A DNA stretch of 64,000 bases, from NCBI GenBank assembly GCA_965208905.1, contig OZ242365.1, positions 736,001-800,000 on the forward strand, given 5' to 3'. Below the pieces are notes generated by a model that saw nothing but the letters and a program-made list of their open reading frames with translations, had not been told where the DNA came from and did not search any database. The stretch is from Nitrosopumilaceae archaeon (GTDB lineage Archaea > Thermoproteota > Nitrososphaeria > Nitrososphaerales > Nitrosopumilaceae). Positions within the stretch are counted from its first letter, which is position 1. The number at the start of each line of letters is the position of its first letter. Made by a program: the position numbers and the translations under genes. Of the stretch, positions 4,537 through 35,115 are shown piece after piece.

Positions 4537-5838
4537 TCAACGTAAGATGCCGGCCTGCGTTATCACAGATGTTGGCGGTGAACCGCCATTCAGAGGAGCT
4601 CTACTGAGATGTTCCTTGATGGTTGGACTTTGACGCCCATCCTTTGGACAGCCTGTGCCGGCCATCACGTCGTTAGCACTTGGGGGAAGCGTGCAAGTGC
4701 CAAGATGTATCTTTCCTCTCAAGACCACTCCGGCCTTGGTTTGCAGTGAATAAACGGCCTGCGCACGCTTACTCCACTGCACTGCATAAAAAGTGAATAA
4801 TATATTGAATGCCGCGTTTATATCAGCGTGCACCAGAACACCACAATCATGACACCGAAACTTACTGCTTTTGCGACATGTGTTTGTGCTGCCACACATG
4901 CAACATAGTTGTGAGGTGCCTTTCTGGTCTATTTCCATGTACTCGGTGTTATGTTGCAAAGCCTGCTGCGCTAGCAAGGCCCGCGCCTCACCACACTTAC
5001 TTTGTCGCATCAATCTATTCTTGGCTTTCTGACCCTTCCCTTTTGTGGTCATGGTGTGGAGATTCATGCCCTCCATGATGATTTTGTCACACTGTCTCAT
5101 CAGTTTCTTAGAGAACTTGCGCAGCTGGTCTTTCTGCTTATTCTCCATCTTTTTGTAGACTGATTGTAGCTGTGCATGCAGGCTGCGCCACTTGTGAGAA
5201 TAAAGTTTACAACGAGACATCTTTTTCTGTATTCGCGCGATATTCCGCAATGTGTCCTTCTCTCGAAGCGTAAGCATGGCAATACTGCCGTCTGACTTTC
5301 CAACAATAAGTGTGTGCTTGCCACCCATGTCAATCCCCGCATGTATACCGGTCGCTACGCGGTCCGGTATATGTTCACGTATAGTTACATGTAGTTCAAA
5401 TTGCCTTTCCTTATCAGCATGGTTTGTAACATCCACAAGCTTATATGACTGTGATGTGTGGGGGAGTGTACCTTTCTGCAGTTTGAAGGGCATGTTGCAC
5501 CTTGGGAGGTACACTATATCATCTTTGGACTTTTTACCCAACGGTATAGCGCTGTACAAAGGATATATCTTGCTCCCGTACTTCACATGACTGCAGCCTT
5601 CCATCGCGTGGCCTTCCTGGATTGCGCCACGAACCCAGGCCTGGGGAATGGTCTGAAGCAGTGTTGCTATTGTCATGGTGTCAAATACCGACAATCCAGC
5701 CCGCCGCGCCTCAATCCCCGCATTGAGCCACATATGTGATTCAGAATACATGGAGTTAAAGTACTTGGTGAGTTTGGTTGATGTCTTTAAACGGTACCGA
5801 AGGGTTCTAATAACGTATTGTGTACCATTGTACTTCAT
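4537..5838 (-). CDS. tnpB: TnpB RNA-guided endonuclease (copy 1)
   Basis: RuvC-I GIDMG, RuvC-II IIMEGMN, zinc finger TSQLCCMCG...CHDCG, RuvC-III HADINAAFNIL; no adjacent tnpA; close paralogue at 32109-33407. Confidence 0.92.
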   Translation of the reverse strand: MKYNGTQYVIRTLRYRLKTSTKLTKYFNSMYSESHMWLNAGIEARRAGLSVFDTMTIATLLQTIPQAWVRGAIQEGHAMEGCSHVKYGSKIYPLYSAIPLGKKSKDDIVYLPRCNMPFKLQKGTLPHTSQSYKLVDVTNHADKERQFELHVTIREHIPDRVATGIHAGIDMGGKHTLIVGKSDGSIAMLTLREKDTLRNIARIQKKMSRCKLYSHKWRSLHAQLQSVYKKMENKQKDQLRKFSKKLMRQCDKIIMEGMNLHTMTTKGKGQKAKNRLMRQSKCGEARALLAQQALQHNTEYMEIDQKGTSQLCCMCGSTNTCRKSSKFRCHDCGVLVHADINAAFNILFTFYAVQWSKRAQAVYSLQTKAGVVLRGKIHLGTCTLPPSANDVMAGTGCPKDGRQSPTIKEHLSRAPLNGGSPPTSVITQAGILR

Positions 5839-18518: not shown

Positions 18519-19334
18519 TTACCATTTTAAGGGTTTTTCAGACTCGTCCCGAGCCATCTTGAAGAGATACTGTTGCGCATAACCTGCGTATGGCCCTAGC
18601 ATATCTACTATATCATCATGTAGTGTATCGTATTGTTGTGCTGTACGTGGAGCAGTACCATCACCTATACTGTAATACTCATGCATCATACGAATGATCC
18701 AACGATCCAAGGGGACTGCCTCTAGGTGACCGCAGCCAAACAACAGTATGCAGTCTGCAACCTTGCGGCCCACCCCTGATAACATACACAATCTCTCCTG
18801 CGCATCCTTATACGACATGCTCTGTATATTACTGCATGAGCCATCACGTATCATACATGATGCCTCTTGAATGTACCTGGCTCTATACCCCACGCCACAC
18901 TCTTTGATCTCTTGTATGTCTGCATCAGCCAGAACGTCTGGGGTTGGAAATATGCGAAACATTATACCGTCATACTCTATCTCATCTCCAAATTTGTGGC
19001 ATATCTCTTGGAGGTTTCTGCGAATTCGTGGTATGTTGGAGTTGGCTGATACTATAAAAGATATTGTACACTGAAAGAGGTCTTGATGTGTAATTCTCAG
19101 ACCCGCATACCTATCTAATAACTCTGATAACAGTCGGTCTTGCCTGAATGTATCATGTATATGTTGAATATCATCACTGCATCGAAAAAAGTCTGCTATG
19201 GTACATGTGGCATCCACCACACCCGTACTGTCTGCTTTTAGCACATTCTGCCCATCTATGATATACCAAAATCTGCCTACCTCTCTCCACAAGAATACCT
19301 GCCCGCTACATAAAGTACCATATACATCCATCAT
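18519..19334 (-). CDS. 8-oxoguanine DNA glycosylase (HhH-GPD family)
   Basis: TLCSGQVF, GVGYRA, HhH motif LSGVGRKVADC, PLD, YAGYAQQYLF. Confidence 0.88.
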   Translation of the reverse strand: MMDVYGTLCSGQVFLWREVGRFWYIIDGQNVLKADSTGVVDATCTIADFFRCSDDIQHIHDTFRQDRLLSELLDRYAGLRITHQDLFQCTISFIVSANSNIPRIRRNLQEICHKFGDEIEYDGIMFRIFPTPDVLADADIQEIKECGVGYRARYIQEASCMIRDGSCSNIQSMSYKDAQERLCMLSGVGRKVADCILLFGCGHLEAVPLDRWIIRMMHEYYSIGDGTAPRTAQQYDTLHDDIVDMLGPYAGYAQQYLFKMARDESEKPLKW

Positions 19335-20599
19335 ACAGTTACAGTTTGGGATGCCTCGCCGGCAAAGGCCTTCAGCCCAAATCTCTCTTGTATCTGCTGC
19401 GCAAACATTGTACATGACTCGGCATCGCCGTGTACTGTCATGACTTGAGGGTTCCCCTCTATTTTTTTGAGCATATCAAACAAATCCTTACTATCCGAGT
19501 GTCCTGAAAACTGGAACTGGCGTACTGCGGCGACCACCGACGCATCCTTACCCCTCACGGCGACCACGCCCTCGTCCAGTAGACGCTTACCTGGAGTACC
19601 ATCGCCCTGATATGATACCATGGCTATGCCATTCTTCTTGTCTAGTGCTAACTCTTGCAGATAAAACACAGCATTTCCTCCCACTAGCATACCTGCTGGT
19701 GATATTATGACGCAGGGGTCTGATATGGCGTTTTTACGATCACGGTTGTGTTTCACTGAATGCGCACCATTGACTGCATCCTGAAAGACATTTGGGTCTC
19801 GGTGAAACTCTGGATACCTCAAAAGTATCTCATTGACCTTGAGTGCCATCCCATCCATCACAATTTTGTGTTTAAAGCCGTACGCTCTTAGTATACACAA
19901 CATCTCTTGCGCCCTCTCGACCGAGAATGATGGTATGAACAATCTACCTTTGTTGTCTATTATCTCATTGGCAAAGTCAACTAGTGCCCTCTCAGACTCT
20001 TCCCGCGGTACCTGTTCTGACTGTGAGTATGTACTCTCTGTTATCAGCAAGTCTATGGCTCCTATATCCAAGTCTGCAGGACCCAACAGCCTAGAACCCG
20101 AAACCTTGATGTCTCCTGTATAAAATAGCCTTTTGCCATCAGCCTCCATCAGTATGGTACTTCCGCCAATTACATGGCCGGACTGGCGTAGCTCAAGTGA
20201 TATAGGACCAATCTGAATCTTGTCTCCATACGGTACATCTATGGCGCTGCGCATCATGTTGTATAGCTGATTCGCATCAAAGGGGTACTGTTTTGATTTA
20301 CTCAGTTTTAGCATATCTGTGATTAATAACTCGGTGAGATCAAATGTTGGTGCAGTTGCAAATATGTCCACACTGCCCGTCTGAAACAGAGATGGCATAA
20401 AACCCGAGTGGTCTAGGTGTGCATGTGTGATTATTGCCCCATCCAAATCTCTGGACTGTACCTGTACGGGAAACTTTGGTGGCTCGCCCCTGCGCTCAAA
20501 CATCACACCATAATCCATCAATACTTTGGTGTTGCCCTCCTGAACTAGAAATCCAGAGCGTCCTACCTGTCTAGCAGCTCCCAATACAGTAACATTCAA
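19331..20599 (-). CDS. Beta-CASP metallo-beta-lactamase ribonuclease
   Basis: THAHLDHSG, GHVIGG, YTGD, ESTY, FSGH and VHGD motifs; TTG start. Confidence 0.92.
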   Translation of the reverse strand: MNVTVLGAARQVGRSGFLVQEGNTKVLMDYGVMFERRGEPPKFPVQVQSRDLDGAIITHAHLDHSGFMPSLFQTGSVDIFATAPTFDLTELLITDMLKLSKSKQYPFDANQLYNMMRSAIDVPYGDKIQIGPISLELRQSGHVIGGSTILMEADGKRLFYTGDIKVSGSRLLGPADLDIGAIDLLITESTYSQSEQVPREESERALVDFANEIIDNKGRLFIPSFSVERAQEMLCILRAYGFKHKIVMDGMALKVNEILLRYPEFHRDPNVFQDAVNGAHSVKHNRDRKNAISDPCVIISPAGMLVGGNAVFYLQELALDKKNGIAMVSYQGDGTPGKRLLDEGVVAVRGKDASVVAAVRQFQFSGHSDSKDLFDMLKKIEGNPQVMTVHGDAESCTMFAQQIQERFGLKAFAGEASQTVTV

Positions 20600-20719
20600 G
20601 ATTTAATCGTTCATTTTGGCGATTATATATCTATGGTATTTTGTACTTGTGTAATATGAGATTGTAACAAAGATGTAATACTCATAAGATTTAATTATTA
20701 ATGCGAAATCTACTAACTC

Positions 20720-20941
20720 ATGGGAAGAACTTACGAACAATGGATTAACCAACAAGACCCTGCATTGGTTGCTCAAGTGAGAGCTGGTGACGAGAACAAT
20801 CCTCCACTTTTGAACCAGATAAACTGGATATGGGTTAAGAACCTAATGGCTAAAAAGTCAGAACTCAATCCGTCTGCAGCAGAGTTGCTTGACTGGGTAA
20901 CATCAGGTCAAATCGAAGCAGTGAGACAGACAAAGAAATAG
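20720..20941 (+). CDS. Small hypothetical protein (recalled as conserved in Nitrosopumilaceae)
   Basis: Biased codon usage; AT-rich promoter; T-rich terminator; LLNQINWIWV...ELLDWVTSGQIEA. Confidence 0.75.
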   Translation: MGRTYEQWINQQDPALVAQVRAGDENNPPLLNQINWIWVKNLMAKKSELNPSAAELLDWVTSGQIEAVRQTKK

Positions 20942-21063
20942 TTATACTCACTTCGTAAACTCTTTTTATTTTAATTATAATACATGACGATTGCTGCGTG
21001 TTATCATAACGGGGTTTTGGATTTTGATTATAGTTTAAATATTATCACTGCGCATCATACAGT

Positions 21064-21459
21064 ATGCCAATAGCAATACTTCCAGACATTGACGCTCAGA
21101 GATGTATAGGCTGCGCACTTTGCGTACAAATTTGTACAGCCCTGACACCCGATGTCCTTAGAATGAAGTCCCTTGAAGGCTGGAACAGAAGCAAGGCGTT
21201 CGTCTTTTATCCAGAGAGATGTATCTCTGATGGCGCATGCATTGGAGTGTGTCCTACAAAGTCCATCTTTTGGATGAGACCGATGAAGTACACATCTGGC
21301 CAGCCAGTACCTCTGCACCAGGGTGGCGTATTCGCCAACGGCTGGGCCGAGGATGCAGCTCTTGACAATGATGGCAAGAAGGCAGTAATCTCTGCACAGA
21401 TGGATGAGCAGAACGCTGCTGGCGCTGCCCAGATCGCAGCTGCCCAAGGCGGCGCATAG
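21064..21459 (+). CDS. 4Fe-4S dicluster ferredoxin
   Basis: CIGCALCVQIC and CISDGACIGVCP motifs. Confidence 0.9.
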   Translation: MPIAILPDIDAQRCIGCALCVQICTALTPDVLRMKSLEGWNRSKAFVFYPERCISDGACIGVCPTKSIFWMRPMKYTSGQPVPLHQGGVFANGWAEDAALDNDGKKAVISAQMDEQNAAGAAQIAAAQGGA

Positions 21460-21482
21460 AGGGAAATCTCGCTTTTTTCTTT

Positions 21483-22973
21483 TTATATAGTAGTGTGATG
21501 CTTGGCGCACTTTACATCTTTGAGAAAGTACGCCAGAAAGACATCCTTGTGGTCGTAGTGTATGGACGTAAAGCTGTTGTTGCTCAGGAATGCCATTAAC
21601 GCCTCTCCAAATGTACCATATCTATCTGGTGTATGAGAGACTCGTGCATCGAGGTGGTGGGAGGCCGGATACATGTCCGACAACTCCAATGGTATTATAC
21701 CCAGATATGGGTTGTATATGCAGATTTGGGCATCATCGGGTATCTTTGCATACTTCTTTAACAGGTATGCCGGTTTGGTTTGAGGCTCTGGCAGTACGTA
21801 TAATGTGTCTTTTTTGGTTCGAAACTTGGATATAATACGGCGGAACTCTACTACTTCGGGTCTGTACTGGTCTGTATGATCAAACAGAAAGATGGCCTTG
21901 TCTTTGAATCGAGGTGTACCCACATGTAGTATCGCGTTATTTCCAGTCAAGACTCGTATCGCCTCAAAGAGGCGGGGATGTGCTCTGGCCTTCTTTAATG
22001 TGTACTCCCAGAGGCGTCCCTCATAAATGGCCTGTCTTGTGGCATCCACCTCTAGTCTTATGGCTGCTAGATTGTGTAGTGCCAAAAGGTCTGTTCTCTC
22101 TTTTTGTTCTGCAGATATCAGCTCCGCCGGAGTATATTTGGTACAGACATCACAGTTGCACGGAAATACGCGAATCTCACTTAGGTTGCGTGTCCCGTCC
22201 TGTGTTATGTATCTGCCCTCCTTTGCGTACAACATGTATGATGCAGAGTCAAATGTATCACACCCCAAAGATATTGCCAGTGGTATTGTGATGGGATGGC
22301 CGGCACCAAATAGATGTAGGGGTATTGATGGCGGGAGTATGCTTCGCGCCTGTACTATCATGGATGCCAGCTTGTAATATTCGTACGACTCCATAAATTC
22401 TACTGGGCTGCCCAGCGCCATGATCTGAAAGCCATACTCCAGGAGACTCTTTGTTGAATGTTTTACCAAGTCTTGGTGCTCGCCGCCTTGTATGGGGCCC
22501 ACCCACAACTGGCCATTATCTTTGGCGGACTGTATGGTGTCATGACAGGCCTGTAGTGTTCTGGATACATATGATGATGCTGTATCATGCGGAAGGCCAA
22601 ACCCTGTTGGCTTGTCCAGTGGAATGGGGATATCTGTCATTATGCCCATCTCAAACTCGGCCATCTGACTGGGTGATATATCCAAATCCCCATACTCCAA
22701 CACTTGATAGCCTCCCGAGTCTGTCATTATGGGACCATCAAATCCGACTATATCATGAATGCCGCGCCGTATGGCCTCATCCCCCCACCGCTTCATTGTT
22801 ATGTATGCGTTGGTTATGATCATCTGAAACTTCATCTTCTTTAGCGTATCCCCTGATATGGTCTGCTTAACCGGATGCATTACTGGTATATAGGCGGGTG
22901 TGTCCACTATGCCATGATTTGTGTGCAGTCTACCTATACGTCCTGCCAGATCTGATTTTATTATCTCAAACAT
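21483..22973 (-). CDS. tgtA: Archaeosine tRNA-guanine(15) transglycosylase
   Basis: MTDSGGYQ, HLFGAGHP, DTFDSASY; zinc motif CNCDVC...H. Confidence 0.93.
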   Translation of the reverse strand: MFEIIKSDLAGRIGRLHTNHGIVDTPAYIPVMHPVKQTISGDTLKKMKFQMIITNAYITMKRWGDEAIRRGIHDIVGFDGPIMTDSGGYQVLEYGDLDISPSQMAEFEMGIMTDIPIPLDKPTGFGLPHDTASSYVSRTLQACHDTIQSAKDNGQLWVGPIQGGEHQDLVKHSTKSLLEYGFQIMALGSPVEFMESYEYYKLASMIVQARSILPPSIPLHLFGAGHPITIPLAISLGCDTFDSASYMLYAKEGRYITQDGTRNLSEIRVFPCNCDVCTKYTPAELISAEQKERTDLLALHNLAAIRLEVDATRQAIYEGRLWEYTLKKARAHPRLFEAIRVLTGNNAILHVGTPRFKDKAIFLFDHTDQYRPEVVEFRRIISKFRTKKDTLYVLPEPQTKPAYLLKKYAKIPDDAQICIYNPYLGIIPLELSDMYPASHHLDARVSHTPDRYGTFGEALMAFLSNNSFTSIHYDHKDVFLAYFLKDVKCAKHHTTI

Positions 22974-30736: not shown

Positions 30737-31024
30737 TTACTCTGCGTTCTTCTTTACTTCGATTTCGATGGTTGACACATTACGTGCTTTTCCGTCGTTT
30801 GATTCTAGCGACTCGGATCCTATTCTGATGTCTCCAATGGAGTATCCTGCATTTTCAGTCTTGCGAGATATGATTTGAGCCACATCTACGGCGCGACCAA
30901 TACTCATGCCTCTTGCTTTGATATTTACCGTCGGTACATTAGTCAACTGAATGAGCGTAGATGTAACATACGCCATCAGAGGCTTTTTACCGATAAAGAT
31001 GGTATCGCGTGCTTCGTTCGACAT
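30737..31024 (-). CDS. albA: DNA/RNA-binding protein Alba
   Basis: IGKKPLMAYV, IKARG, AVDVA, VSTIEI motifs. Confidence 0.95.
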   Translation of the reverse strand: MSNEARDTIFIGKKPLMAYVTSTLIQLTNVPTVNIKARGMSIGRAVDVAQIISRKTENAGYSIGDIRIGSESLESNDGKARNVSTIEIEVKKNAE

Positions 31025-31496
31025 TGGGAGTGAATAAATATATTGCTAATTTAAATCAAACATTTTTTGCCTTCTTTGGCAAGTATGACTGGCCAACCCT
31101 TCCTGTAACTATTGCACACATCCACACACCAGACACTGATGATTTATGATATCGTACCTAATCAACTTGCTTTTTTACTAGTTCCCCCACAAGTTTGGGC
31201 GTTAGCCAGTAAAATTGAATTAATGATCTTAAATTCTAGGAATAACTATCGCAAATATGTAGTTAGACACGGAAGTACAGAAATCTATAACAAAGACGTA
31301 CATACAAGAGCGGTCAAATCAATAATAACTGATGTAACGTGACATCTGAGAGTAAAGCGGCGTATGGTCTCGTTGCACGTAATAAACCTCAATGAAGCCG
31401 TCAATATGATGTAATTTAGATCATGTTCTAACTTTGGAGGAAACCCACAAACAACAATCCTTTTATGATACAAATATGTAACAACTATGCAGTGCC

Positions 31497-31877
31497 ATGG
31501 CGAAGAACACATCTTGGGGAAACGTGCGTGTCCGCCAGGACTTGATTGACCGAATGACCAAAGCCCTCCATACCGCCGAGCTACAACGTGAGGGATTCAC
31601 AAATGTTGCGCAGCTTACAGATAATATAATACGCAAGGCCCTGGCATCCCTTGAAGCCAAACGATTTGAACATATAAACATGTATGAGGACCATGTCAAA
31701 ATACTAGATAACCACATAGGCCGTCAAGGCCGTATAATATCCGTATACTATAAGGAAAATATGGACCCCATATGTGAATACTGCGAGGATAGCGACTGCG
31801 TACATATACAGTACGCCTGGGAGATAGGTGCAGTACGAGACATACTAAAGCAGCATGGCTTTAAGCCACCATCATGA
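31497..31877 (+). CDS. Hypothetical protein with RHH-like N-terminus and CxxC-x4-CxH zinc site
   Basis: N-terminal strand-helix-helix pattern; CEYCEDSDCVHI. Confidence 0.65.
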   Translation: MAKNTSWGNVRVRQDLIDRMTKALHTAELQREGFTNVAQLTDNIIRKALASLEAKRFEHINMYEDHVKILDNHIGRQGRIISVYYKENMDPICEYCEDSDCVHIQYAWEIGAVRDILKQHGFKPPS

Positions 31878-32094
31878 TGTGATGCCCCAAAAGTGTTGTT
31901 TTTTAGACGGTTGACCTGTTATCGTCTCCATTAGCATCTTCATATATCCCAAAAATTTTACAGTACCGTCTTCCCACTACACACTTGGTAAACAGTAGTC
32001 TAGAACTAGCGCGCTGACGCCACACAATCAATTCGCCATCCATGTATGGACTCGGGCATGGGCGTTATTGAGTATTCATAGATTATGTTGTCAA

Positions 32095-33464
32095 GGAGCT
32101 GTCAAATCTTAGAGGGATATGACAGCCTGCCGTACGGCAGATGTTGGCGAGTTACCATCCAGAGGAGATTCCATGAGATGTTCCTTGTTGGTCAGGCTTT
32201 GATGCCCGTCCTTTGGACAGCCTGTGCCGGCCATCACGTCACCAACGACACTGGGTATAGTGAGTGTCGCAAGATGTATCTTCCCTCTCAAGACCATTCC
32301 GGCCTTGGCTTGCAGTGAATAAACGGCCTGCACGCGTTTACTCCACTGCACTGCATAAAAAGTGAATAATATGTTGAACGCGGCGTTGACGTCCGCGTGC
32401 TGTACAACATCGCAGTCATGGCACCTGAATCGGCTGCCGTCGCGCCACGTGTTTGTTCTGCCGCATACACAGCACTGCTGCGATGTGTATTTCGGGTCAA
32501 TCTCGGCATATTCGGTGTTGTGCTTGAGTGACTGCTGCGCCATGTGGGACCGCGCCTCACCGCACTTGGACTGCCGCACCAGACGGTTCTTGTTCTTCTG
32601 GCCTGGGCCCTTGGTCGTCATGGTTTTGAGGTTCATGCCCTCCATGATTATTTTGTCGCATTGCGCGAACAGTTTTTTGGCAAACTTGCGCAGCTTGTCT
32701 GTCTGCCGGTTTCCCATCTTGCGGTATATGCTTTGCAGCTGCGCGTGCAGTGTACACCACTTGTGGGAGTGAAGTTTGCAGTGAGACATCTTCTTTTGAA
32801 TACGCGCGATGTTTCGTATAGTGTCCTTCTCGCGCAACATCAGCATCTCTATTCTGCCGTCCGATTTTGCCACCACAAGCGTGTGTTTGCCGCCCATGTC
32901 AATTCCCGCGTGTACGCCGGTACATACACGGTCCGGAACGTGTTCGCGTATAGTTACATGCAGCTCAAACTGTCTTTCCCTGTCCGCATTATTCGTCACA
33001 TCCACAATTTTGTACGACTGTGATGTGTCGGGCAGGCGTCCTTTCTGGAGTTTGAAGGGCGCGCCACACTTTGGGAAATACACTGTATTACCCTTGGACT
33101 TTTTGCCAAGCGGCATATTACTATACAGTGGGTAAACCTTCTTGCCATACTTTACGTGAGTGCACCCCTCCATCTTGTGGCCTTCCTTGATGGCTCCGTG
33201 AACCCAAGCCTGTGGTATGCCCTGACATATGGTGGCTATTTTGTTGGTGTCAAACACCGACAGACCGGCCCGGCGCGCCTTTATCCCTGCATTGAGCCAC
33301 ACATGACTCTCCGAATACATGATGTCAAAGTATTCTGTCAGCCTGGCAGATGTCCTTAAACGGTATTGGACAGTCTTTATAATGTACTTTCCACCATTAT
33401 ACTTCATGTGTAGTTTATAACTTGGTGCTATTTAAGCGGTATCCCCCTAAGATTTGACAGTGCC
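32095..33464 (-). mobile_element. Non-autonomous TIR element carrying only tnpB
   Basis: TIRs GGAGCTGTCAAATCTTAGAGGGATA (32095-32119) and GGCACTGTCAAATCTTAGGGGGATA (reverse complement of 33440-33464), 22/25 identical; flanked by direct repeats GTTGTCAA at 32087-32094 and 33465-33472. Confidence 0.9.
32109..33407 (-). CDS. tnpB: TnpB RNA-guided endonuclease (copy 2)
   Basis: GIDMG, IIMEGMN, TSQQCCVCG...CHDCD, HADVNAAFNIL; D-E-D triad intact; stop codon lies inside the TIR. Confidence 0.92.
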   Translation of the reverse strand: MKYNGGKYIIKTVQYRLRTSARLTEYFDIMYSESHVWLNAGIKARRAGLSVFDTNKIATICQGIPQAWVHGAIKEGHKMEGCTHVKYGKKVYPLYSNMPLGKKSKGNTVYFPKCGAPFKLQKGRLPDTSQSYKIVDVTNNADRERQFELHVTIREHVPDRVCTGVHAGIDMGGKHTLVVAKSDGRIEMLMLREKDTIRNIARIQKKMSHCKLHSHKWCTLHAQLQSIYRKMGNRQTDKLRKFAKKLFAQCDKIIMEGMNLKTMTTKGPGQKNKNRLVRQSKCGEARSHMAQQSLKHNTEYAEIDPKYTSQQCCVCGRTNTWRDGSRFRCHDCDVVQHADVNAAFNILFTFYAVQWSKRVQAVYSLQAKAGMVLRGKIHLATLTIPSVVGDVMAGTGCPKDGHQSLTNKEHLMESPLDGNSPTSAVRQAVISL

Positions 33465-33638
33465 GTTGTCAAACTCTTTATCACTTCTATAAACTGCAGG
33501 AATGGTTCAGGTGGTGTATAACTCTAAACTTCTACCGTACAATCTCTGTAGTCGTATATACATGAGTCTGAATCGAATATTTGAAAGATGGTGGATCGGG
33601 TAGGGTATGTTGGATAGTGGAACAATGCAGCCAAACTT

Positions 33639-33992
33639 TTAACGACCCTTTTGCTCCAGTATGGCTCGGATTTTCCCCACCACCTTGTCAACAACCTGGC
33701 GTGTAGCGCGGCCTGCAAACTCGGCGTGTCTAGCACGCCAGTCCAAGCTCTTGATTTGATCCGCTAAAATCACTCCTCTGACACTGCCTGCATCTGGAAG
33801 ATCTACCTCAAACGGGTAGCCCTTGATCTTGGATGTAATGGGGCAAAATAGCGCCAACCCAACCTTCTCGTTATACGCGCTGGGGCTTATCACCACGGCG
33901 GGTCTTCTTCTTGCCTGCTCATGGCCAGCCTGCGGCATGAAATCAATCCAAACTATGTCGTCCCTTTCCGGCACGTAGCCTGCATCTACCAT
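33639..33992 (-). CDS. mazF: MazF/PemK endoribonuclease toxin
   Basis: YVPERDDIVWIDFMPQAGHEQARRRPAVVISP, CPITSKIKGYPFEV, ADQIKSLDW. Confidence 0.93.
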   Translation of the reverse strand: MVDAGYVPERDDIVWIDFMPQAGHEQARRRPAVVISPSAYNEKVGLALFCPITSKIKGYPFEVDLPDAGSVRGVILADQIKSLDWRARHAEFAGRATRQVVDKVVGKIRAILEQKGR

Positions 33993-34153
33993 TCTTCTTT
34001 GCCCTGAGCCGAACCTGATTCGTGTTCGGGATGGCAATTGGTTTGGTCCACATGAGACAGCATGCTTGCCAAGTCGTACTTGTCCGTGTTAGTGTGATGC
34101 GCGCTATCAGACCTGCGTAACTCCGTACCCTTTCCAGCTGCATGCTTCATCAT
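33986..34153 (-). CDS. MazE-like antitoxin of 55 aa (below the ORF-track cutoff)
   Basis: MMKHAAGKGTELRRSDSAHHTNTDKYDLASMLSHVDQTNCHPEHESGSAQGKEEW; C-terminus resembles the MazE toxin-binding tail; overlaps the mazF start; TTATATA about 25 nt upstream. Confidence 0.7.
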   Translation of the reverse strand: MMKHAAGKGTELRRSDSAHHTNTDKYDLASMLSHVDQTNCHPEHESGSAQGKEEW

Positions 34154-34396
34154 AACACTTGTACCGCATGCAGGTATATAATAATTACAAAGACTGGTGT
34201 TCTGGCGACCTGGTGAATACTGGGAGTCGTCAAGACATCATAAATCTACTATGGGTGCTCCTGCTGTGGCGTTAGAGTGGGAAACCTTGCCACGCTCGCC
34301 GCAGTTAGACAGTTGATACGGTTGGATAGTTTATCTCGTCAACCTCTGCGGCGATAGGTGCAGCTGGCGGGCACTCGCCTTGATGTCATATGTAAG

Positions 34397-34470
34397 TGGA
34401 CCGGGTGGGATTTGAACCCACGATCTGATCCATGCCAAGGACCCATCCTACCAGTCTAGACGACCGGCCC
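34397..34470 (-). tRNA. tRNA-Ala(GGC)
   Basis: Cloverleaf with a G3:U70 pair; anticodon arm GGTCC-TTGGCAT-GGATC. Confidence 0.93.
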
Positions 34471-34515
34471 GCACTTGATATGAAGTATACTAACTGATAT
34501 TAACATATGTACAAT

Positions 34516-35115
34516 TTACCATCCCTTCTTTGGAAACTTCATACCCAAAACTCGTATGGTATCATCTGGAGATGCCGCAAACTGGCGTACTGTGTCCCAT
34601 CTTTCATGTATTATATCAACTACTGGCTCTGGTACTTGACTCTTCCATGCGTCTATACTGTCAGTAGTTGCTGATCTGTACAGTAGTGATTTTACTGATG
34701 TGGCCGATATGGGACGTCGCTCGCCCACCCGGGGCCGTAGCCTGTACAGTCTTAACATTACACCTTCAGACTTGTCTCCTGTATATGAGAAAAAGTCACC
34801 ATGTACATTATTGAGTATCTTTGATCGCAACGACCAGGATTTTTTAGATATTACTGGCGGAATATACTTTTTGAACGGTGCCTCAAAGGTATAGTCGTCA
34901 CTTATACAGATAGTGTCCCCAAAGACCGACTCTAACATTCTCTTTCGAGTATTGTAATCAAATGGAAAGCTACGGCTGTTTAACTCGATATTATCATACT
35001 TGAACACCACCGGCATCACTTTTATTGTATCTGCCTCTTTGATTAGGTCTTGAATTATATCCACGTGGGCGTTTGTCACCGGGTTTAGATGAGCTAGATA
35101 AAGAGCAGTCGCCAA
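34516..35115 (-). CDS. Nucleotidyltransferase of the cytidylyltransferase-like (HIGH) superfamily
   Basis: LYLAHLNPVTNAH and ISATSVK motifs. Confidence 0.75.
   Translation of the reverse strand: MATALYLAHLNPVTNAHVDIIQDLIKEADTIKVMPVVFKYDNIELNSRSFPFDYNTRKRMLESVFGDTICISDDYTFEAPFKKYIPPVISKKSWSLRSKILNNVHGDFFSYTGDKSEGVMLRLYRLRPRVGERRPISATSVKSLLYRSATTDSIDAWKSQVPEPVVDIIHERWDTVRQFAASPDDTIRVLGMKFPKKGW

Follow-up and report, generated by a model that had tools for sequence, protein, structure and literature searches.

How does an intact gene for a TnpB-type nuclease come to be the only cargo between terminal inverted repeats and a target-site duplication? We address this question for a 1370-bp unit in a 64,000-nt stretch of the genome of a Nitrosopumilaceae archaeon (GenBank assembly GCA_965208905.1, contig OZ242365.1, positions 736,001 to 800,000), referred to below as the window. 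A first-pass annotation, made from the letters of the window, had proposed a non-autonomous DDE-type element mobilised in trans and had named IS6, IS1 and IS1595 as candidate families. We conclude that the unit is probably a non-autonomous member of an IS6-like family, with tnpB and an overlapping candidate guide RNA (omega-RNA) as its sole cargo, inserted in trans by an IS6-like DDE transposase. The DDE-type character of the element is upheld by an empty insertion site, by the lack of Y1 and Resolvase matches in the genome and by an alignment of ends, the last of which also narrows the candidates to the IS6-like family; movement in trans is what we infer from them.

An intact tnpB between inverted repeats

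The unit (window 32095-33464) ends in 25-nt inverted repeats that are 22/25 identical by direct reading, and GTTGTCAA stands at both of its borders. A repeat search of the window recovered a 21-nt core of the inverted ends at 95%, and the pattern of this core occurred at two window sites only, the two ends of the unit, with 0 expected in 100 shuffles. The sole long open reading frame (ORF) is a tnpB of 432 aa on the minus strand, whose stop codon lies within the left repeat (coordinates of all features are in Table 1). A TATA-like box, TATTTAAG in plus-strand letters, lies about 25 nt upstream of the tnpB ATG as the predicted promoter, and on reading the sequences the motif around it is conserved in all tnpB subfamilies. 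The unit, its inverted ends, the flanking 8-bp duplication and the stop codon inside the repeat had all been described in the first-pass annotation, and each was confirmed.

The same annotation had called the tnpB intact, with three RuvC catalytic residues, which profile matches and an alignment to solved TnpB chains bear out. The ORF matches Pfam OrfB_IS605 (39.1 bits, cut-off 30.5) and Cas12f1-like_TNB (52.5 bits, cut-off 26.3) as well as NCBIfam guided_TnpB (113.6 bits, cut-off 100). In the alignment, its segments GIDMG, IMEGMN and HADVNAAFN face the three RuvC motifs, and these we take to be the catalytic positions. The protein is probably an active RNA-guided nuclease. Its family is narrow, with 41 proteins at E <= 1e-20 among 1471 candidates from a large protein collection, and among 31 related genomes searched its close relatives occurred only in the source genome (G000), a sister genome (G005) and one other (G008).

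An empty allele in a sister genome

A search of the 31 related genomes with window positions 31000-34600 found both flanks of the element in the sister genome G005. There the left flank stops and the right flank starts on the same 8 bases, so that the flanks are contiguous around a single GTTGTCAA, an empty allele of the kind that the first-pass annotation had suggested seeking in relatives. The single GTTGTCAA of this empty site proves that the 8-bp duplication arose at insertion.

We also examined whether public DNA runs support the junctions, counting a contig as bridging when it reached 31 nt into the element. The right junction was bridged by contigs from two studies (X3 and X7), of which X3 may be the source sample of the window assembly. 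At the left junction, contigs extended just 29 nt into the element, under the 31-nt rule, so that support was gained on the right and fell short on the left. In a run from a second organism the element was present at this same site, as seen at its right junction, where 325 nt contained 19 differences.

Copies of the element in the source genome

The source genome is a single contig of 2.21 Mb, 99.6% complete, and contains 26 DNA matches to the window element. Two copies are 94-95% identical to it and have the same ends; one has CGTGATCA on both sides, the other is without a clean duplication, and both carry an in-frame stop, leaving the window copy as the only intact member of its subfamily. 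About nine further full-length copies lie at 72-82% identity. The exact 25-bp repeat is present in the genome only in the three copies and one fragment. The diverged copies have in common a body that begins at the promoter motif and extends as far as a hairpin, itself conserved, close to the 3' end, and their terminal repeats differ by subfamily, most starting GGnnCTG or TGnGCTG. When the ends of 12 long copies were read by eye, four had perfect 8/8 duplications (GTTGTCAA, CGTGATCA, TTAGTCTA and CTCTGAAC, all of them also recovered by the automatic test described below), two matched at 7/8, three were without a clear duplication and three had unresolved ends.

Further tnpB copies with the same ends and different duplications, which the first-pass annotation had proposed to look for, are thus present in the genome, as with CGTGATCA. 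The scenario that it had set against its own proposal, a one-off tnpB insertion into a miniature inverted-repeat transposable element (MITE), was not seen: the genome contained no tnpB-less mini-element with the window element's ends, and the flanks of the other copies are related.

Two side observations concern other members of the family. The window holds a second intact tnpB of the same family (4537-5838, minus strand, 433 aa, 75% identical); the region beyond its 5' side ends in GGAACTGGTGCATC (at about window 5957), the tip of the 3.6-kb IS6-like elements described below, and the tip on its 3' side differs from GGAACTGGTGCATC. A TAATTTCC flank is common to two tnpB copies at 1455264 and 2049469.

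IS6-like transposases as candidate partners

We searched the genome for transposases that might move such an element. The source genome gave no match to Y1_Tnp (PF01797) in a profile search with positive controls (6/14 genomes), and none of the 31 related genomes gave a Y1_Tnp match over the cut-off, again with positive controls. Resolvase (PF00239) had no match in the source genome, to which that search was limited (control positive in 12/14 genomes). The TnpB TNB domain was found in 18/31 related genomes and had 75 matches in the source genome.

DDE_Tnp_IS240 exceeded its cut-off at 13 places in the genome, in open frames of 356-501 aa that combine a zinc-finger-rich N-terminus with an IS240/rve core. 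The best NCBIfam model for these proteins was the IS6 family transposase, covered over positions 1-202 of 202 of the profile, at 92-103 bits compared with a cut-off of 125; because the best model is IS6 and the scores stay under its cut-off, we call them IS6-like. Such proteins were present in 17/31 related genomes, and in 9/9 other genomes of the genus. A duplication-anchored scan combined with a 3.5-kb search found a long inverted repeat pair for 5 of the 13 genes and no pair for the other 8. Short repeats returned by a first automated search with 500-bp flanks were rejected as spurious.

Two IS6-like elements were complete, at 18695-22054 and 157876-161563 of the genome, both with 16/16 matching tip positions, repeats of about 50 bp and a perfect 8-bp duplication (GAATTTTT and GTCAATAC, respectively); the ends of the latter start GGAACTGTCAAA. 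The cargo of these elements (3.4-3.7 kb) includes DNA methyltransferase genes along with other ORFs. In an ungapped, terminus-anchored alignment of the two window-element ends with four IS6-like ends, 14 of the first 24 columns were invariant, and the tips of the window element agree with those of the 157876 element at 11/12 positions. The flanks of other IS6-like genes mirror the ends of other tnpB subfamilies (GAACTGTCCCA, TGGGCTGGTAAC, GGAACTGGTGCATC and CTGTTAAGTTA); in all, five more end types within this tnpB family are each similar to the end of an element with a different IS6-like gene.

Taken together, these results suggest how the element would have moved. It would keep one 25-bp transposase-binding repeat per end and be unable to move alone; an IS6-like DDE transposase encoded elsewhere would bind the ends and join them to target DNA cut with an 8-bp stagger, and the best candidate partner is the element at genome 157876-161563. 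Transcription of the guide RNA would start in the 3' part of the gene, cross the end repeat and continue into the flank, and TnpB could then cut unoccupied copies of the element's own insertion site, favouring retention or spread.

No element holding both a tnpB and a DDE gene was found in the source genome. The only region where the two lie side by side (2094881-2097160, L041) was considered as a joint tnpB and IS6-like unit and rejected: the IS6-like tip GGTTCTGGGAAATC stands at the junction, so an IS6-like element has inserted into a tnpB element, now truncated. This locus shows that tnpB and IS6-like elements insert into one another.

Further observations concern the IS6-like elements themselves. 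A 3.6-kb IS6-like cargo element is present in two copies of the same orientation at a distance of about 510 kb (L044, G000:C1:1336000-1341800, and L033, G000:C1:1850033-1853455); the copies have exchanged flanks, in the arrangement GTCCGTTG-copy-AAAATAAC ... AAAATAAC-copy-GTCCGTTG, and in the first of them another right end lies 351 bp beyond. The exchange has the pattern that a replicative cointegrate or an element-mediated replicon fusion would leave, and other histories may account for it too. A TGTCAAAA flank is common to an end at 157840 and an end at 1116874. The pentamer GTCAA, the core of the tip CTGTCAA, lies inside 3 of about 12 duplications of the IS6-like class: GTTGTCAA (window 32087-32094), GTCAATAC (G000 157868-157875) and TGTCAAAA (G000 about 157841-157848). 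This hints that the transposase may prefer targets resembling its own binding site.

Other tnpB families and their carriers

A strict automatic test, which demanded an exact 8-bp duplication and at least 10/12 matching tip positions, was passed by 22/63 tnpB-like ORFs compared with 2/300 control ORFs, and several more tnpB ORFs failed by one mismatch. Elements of one family, about 1470 bp long, have tips GGGAATTATATAC and perfect 8-bp duplications at many sites, and families of 1.5-1.65 kb have tips GGTTCCTCCC (the GGTTCC class) and 8-bp duplications. The GGGAATTAT tips of tnpB elements also bound IS1595-like transposase elements, whose 8-bp duplications are perfect (675271-677401, 1211856-1213986, 1043578-1046414 and 1770047-1772736). 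Example loci of these other families, outside the window, are G000 33496-34967, 239554-241169 and 2062478-2063897.

The same survey bears on the possibility that the window element was mobilised by a DDE transposase of another family, IS1595-like or otherwise, rather than by an IS6-like one. The IS1595-like tips are common to many tnpB elements; in G005, GGGAATTAT-type shells enclose relatives from the window's own TnpB family (67-75% identical), and one of these has the duplication TAACTATA; and for the third end class, GGTTCCTCCC, no matching transposase was found in the genome. The ends of the window element, however, align to IS6-like ends and not to the IS1595-like repeat, which starts GGGAATTATAG, and we consider a partner from another family unlikely. 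A repeat of an IS1595-like family (family 6) was tried as kin of the window element and proved unrelated to it, but it matches other tnpB families.

One G005 member of the window's TnpB family lies in an IS6-like shell with TTTATTTG. The ends of three of the G005 copies (L069, L070 and L071) were resolved by eye, the automated search having given short repeats only, and for two more (L062 and L068) the end at the tnpB 3' side, the only one resolved, has a GGGAATTAT-type tip. In a quick tree the IS6-like-shelled copies formed one group and the GGGAATTAT-shelled copies fell closer to the outgroups; support is moderate, so the tree is a hint only, and its row G005_10k (a wrong ORF on a long branch) is to be disregarded. 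The G005 shells and the tree together suggest that the tnpB cassette has changed carrier.

A wider view is possible, although we hold it to be doubtful: the whole tnpB complement of the genus (about 60-75 copies per genome) would have left TnpA and become a portable cassette across at least three unrelated DDE shells that make 8-bp duplications (IS6-like, IS1595-like and GGTTCC), rebuilding its 3' hairpin from each end repeat and maybe driving insertion into unoccupied chromosome copies. Such a cassette would span the region from promoter to terminal hairpin and take up the local end repeat at each move.

Two observations on these families stand apart from the question of carriers. The GGTTCCTCCC class also includes a 585-bp MITE at 999540-1000124. 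When 11 GGGAATTAT-class tnpB elements are read in the direction of tnpB, a G directly precedes the left-side duplication in 9/11 (often as ..TAG or ..ATG), and the mirror position downstream is C in 1/11. In this small sample, the orientation-dependent bias would fit a target-adjacent motif (TAM) rather than a symmetric preference of the transposase.

Weighing the IS6-like assignment

Several points weigh against our assignment of the window element to an IS6-like transposase acting in trans. The candidate transposases score below the NCBIfam IS6 cut-off and have a long extra N-terminus, which sets them apart from classic IS6. Each end of the tnpB element consists of one repeat unit, compared with two in the autonomous elements, and no element of an IS6-like or any other transposase with exactly these 25-bp ends was found in the genome. 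Cross-recognition of ends that agree at 11/12 tip positions must therefore be assumed, and the autonomous element that the first-pass annotation had proposed to seek exists with homologous IS6-like ends and not with the exact ones. Of three close copies, one is without a clean duplication and two have in-frame stops; these defects and the divergence of the copies, which are 94-95% alike, mean that the copies are no proof of recent activity. The IS1595-like elements of the same genome also make 8-bp duplications. Public RNA from two metatranscriptome runs covers 31600-31841 only, in the neighbouring gene, and is uninformative on the guide RNA. Finally, no TAM-like motif was seen upstream of the duplications at seven sites of the window's family, and without a common motif there no TAM can be named for it.

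Some of these features would also be expected of an immobile relic, a product of one DDE insertion whose ends are now recognised by no enzyme and whose tnpB, if retained, would serve the host or itself in a way unconnected with mobility. The close copies are 94-95% alike rather than near-identical, two of the three contain in-frame stops, a partner with the exact ends was not found in the genome, and the occupied right junction of the second organism, with its many differences, suggests an old insertion. Yet the site is empty in the closer sister G005, where the flanks are 87-97% identical; the insertion must therefore postdate the split from G005 or be polymorphic, and the window copy is intact with all its motifs. 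We regard a relic as quite improbable, and the IS6-like assignment as the best explanation of the locus.

A candidate guide RNA at the 3' end of tnpB

We next consider the 3' region of the gene, where the guide RNA would be expected. Over the last approximately 220 nt of tnpB, nucleotide conservation is far above that of the rest of the gene, across subfamilies. RNAalifold predicted 33 pairs in this region, 9 with compensatory changes, from an alignment in which the L070 row is misplaced and poorly aligned. At the tnpB 3'-side end of the window element the predicted hairpin has -20.6 kcal/mol, compared with -6.5 for the other end. In most families the 3'-side hairpin is formed by the repeat tip and a complementary stretch further in, and it leaves 3-15 nt up to the terminus; the other end is without such a hairpin except where it has a long inverted copy of the 3' end. 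The predicted hairpin fits the scaffold of a guide RNA that would run to the element end, with the guide read from the flank. An Rfam scan of window 31900-33700 with E up to 1 gave no match.

Alternatively, the guide might lie within the end repeat itself, in which case TnpB would cut element ends and act in excision or in conflict between elements. Homology between subfamilies does stop right after the conserved hairpin, the repeat differs by subfamily, and the other end holds the same sequence in inverse orientation. But in three end classes the repeat tip is part of a hairpin that only the tnpB 3' end can form, at 3-15 nt from the terminus, as expected for a guide taken from the flank, and the sequences before the two repeats differ, with no common TAM apparent. 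A guide within the repeat is thus very improbable.

The hairpin and the tnpB would also suit an ordinary IS200/IS605-type (IS1341-group) element moved by a Y1 TnpA, with coincidental repeats and duplication, such elements being the classic carriers of TnpB, but this is refuted for practical purposes by the empty site that proves the 8-bp duplication, by the recurrence of the architecture with different duplications and by the lack of Y1_Tnp in the source genome and, over the cut-off, in the 31 relatives.

Fragments with the 3' region alone form a separate observation. Four loci (G000:C1:424610-424747, 822346-822747, 1136480-1136841 and 902561-902767) consist of the last 140-400 nt of tnpB and the end repeat, so that the candidate scaffold is present and the nuclease is missing. 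Such loci may have arisen by decay, or they may be independent guide RNA genes, as reported for OMEGA systems.

Features and neighbouring genes

The features of the element are collected in Table 1. An unassigned 126-aa ORF lies on one side of it and, on the right, a PemK/MazF-type toxin gene (window 33639-34037, minus strand, Pfam E = 4e-27). Beyond the toxin gene is tRNA-Ala(GGC) (window 34396-34470, minus strand); in a comparison with all 31 related genomes, no other part of the region is as well conserved.

Table 1 Features of the tnpB element, in window coordinates.
Feature	Position	Strand	Basis
Left 8-bp target-site duplication, GTTGTCAA	32087..32094		Sequence; single copy at the G005 empty site
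Terminal inverted repeat, tnpB 3' side (right end in tnpB sense), holds the tnpB stop	32095..32119	+	Repeat search; aligns to IS6-like ends
tnpB, 432 aa, intact, RuvC D/E/D motifs and zinc ribbon	32109..33407	-	ORF, profiles, alignment to solved chains
Candidate omega-RNA scaffold, overlaps the tnpB 3' end and would run to the element end, predicted terminal hairpin	32095..32316	-	Conservation and predicted fold; RNA putative
TATA-like box, TATTTAAG (+ strand)	33429..33436	-	Sequence reading
Terminal inverted repeat, tnpB 5' side (left end in tnpB sense)	33440..33464	-	Repeat search, end alignment
Right 8-bp target-site duplication, GTTGTCAA	33465..33472		Sequence; G005 empty site

Significance

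By the accepted view, TnpB serves to put a transposon back where it had been, once a Y1 or serine transposase has excised it from the donor site without a scar. The intact TnpB family described here is confined to DDE-type shells with target duplications; its best-matching partner is IS6-like, and IS6-type elements transpose by a copy-in (replicative) route without excision. With copying of the IS6 type, TnpB could not serve the repair of an excised donor site in this setting, and if it is active its benefit must lie elsewhere, homing into empty alleles being one example. Many natural insertions are available together with their flanks, ready for use in a test of guide and TAM rules. The present case widens the known range of prokaryotic TnpB carriers and of the cargo of IS6-like elements, and by analogy the element could be viewed as a prokaryotic counterpart to Fanzor in inverted-repeat transposons.

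Comparison with known systems

The window element resembles the IS1341 group of IS200/IS605 in its single tnpB of about 1.3-1.5 kb, its many diverged copies per genome and a structured RNA region, here predicted, at the 3' end of the gene. IS200/IS605 elements are described as having no inverted ends and no duplication and as depending on the Y1 TnpA (PMC13565253, section 5.1; PMC3119063), whereas the window element has both inverted ends and a duplication and its genome is without TnpA. Unlike the setting of IS607, the source genome has no serine recombinase (PF00239), and elements moved by such an enzyme make no 8-bp duplication.

Among eukaryotes, DNA transposons with inverted repeats have been described as carriers of Fanzor proteins (Bao and Jurka 2013, PMC3627910). 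In both cases a TnpB-type nuclease appears as a passenger in duplication-making DDE transposons; the hosts of Fanzor are, however, eukaryotic or viral and its transposons belong to other superfamilies, so that the likeness is one of analogy only.

The review of the IS6/IS26 family by Varani et al. 2021 (PMC7986276) describes 8-bp duplications, 14-bp repeats, two MITEs and one passenger-carrying member, and mentions TnpB nowhere. The elements studied here have in common with that family, as described there, the 8-bp duplications, short inverted repeats starting GG, an IS240-type DDE domain, rare MITEs and cointegrate-like flanks. Classic IS6/IS26 elements are given there as 700-890 bp long with 14-bp repeats and transposases of 213-254 aa, whereas the IS6-like elements here have transposases of 355-440 aa with extra zinc-finger domains and scores under the NCBIfam IS6 cut-off, two-unit repeats of about 50 bp and kilobases of cargo.

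The principle, that DDE-associated TnpBs with inverted ends exist and that solo copies are moved in trans, is already published. Altae-Tran et al. 2023 (PNAS, PMC10691335) described six DDE-associated TnpB branches (DDE-1 to DDE-6), all with inverted terminal repeats, reported solo TnpBs with the ends of transposase-bearing elements, from which they inferred that some are mobilised in trans, and regarded TnpB function as transferable between transposons. For that work a 2026 review (PMC13565253), in the part that lists its families, gives ISL2, IS630 and IS1031, and not IS6 or IS1595. Our literature search on TnpB with IS1595, with Cenarchaeum, or with the terms non-autonomous, DDE or in trans found no description of the present case. 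The IS6-like and IS1595-like carriers and a tnpB complement wholly free of TnpA appear undescribed, but the present clade may be among the six DDE branches of the 2023 paper. The main text of that paper names IS630, whereas the partner of the window element is probably IS6-like; common to those branches, as presented there, and to the window element is a TnpB within inverted-repeat elements, with the 3' end of tnpB near the transposon end.

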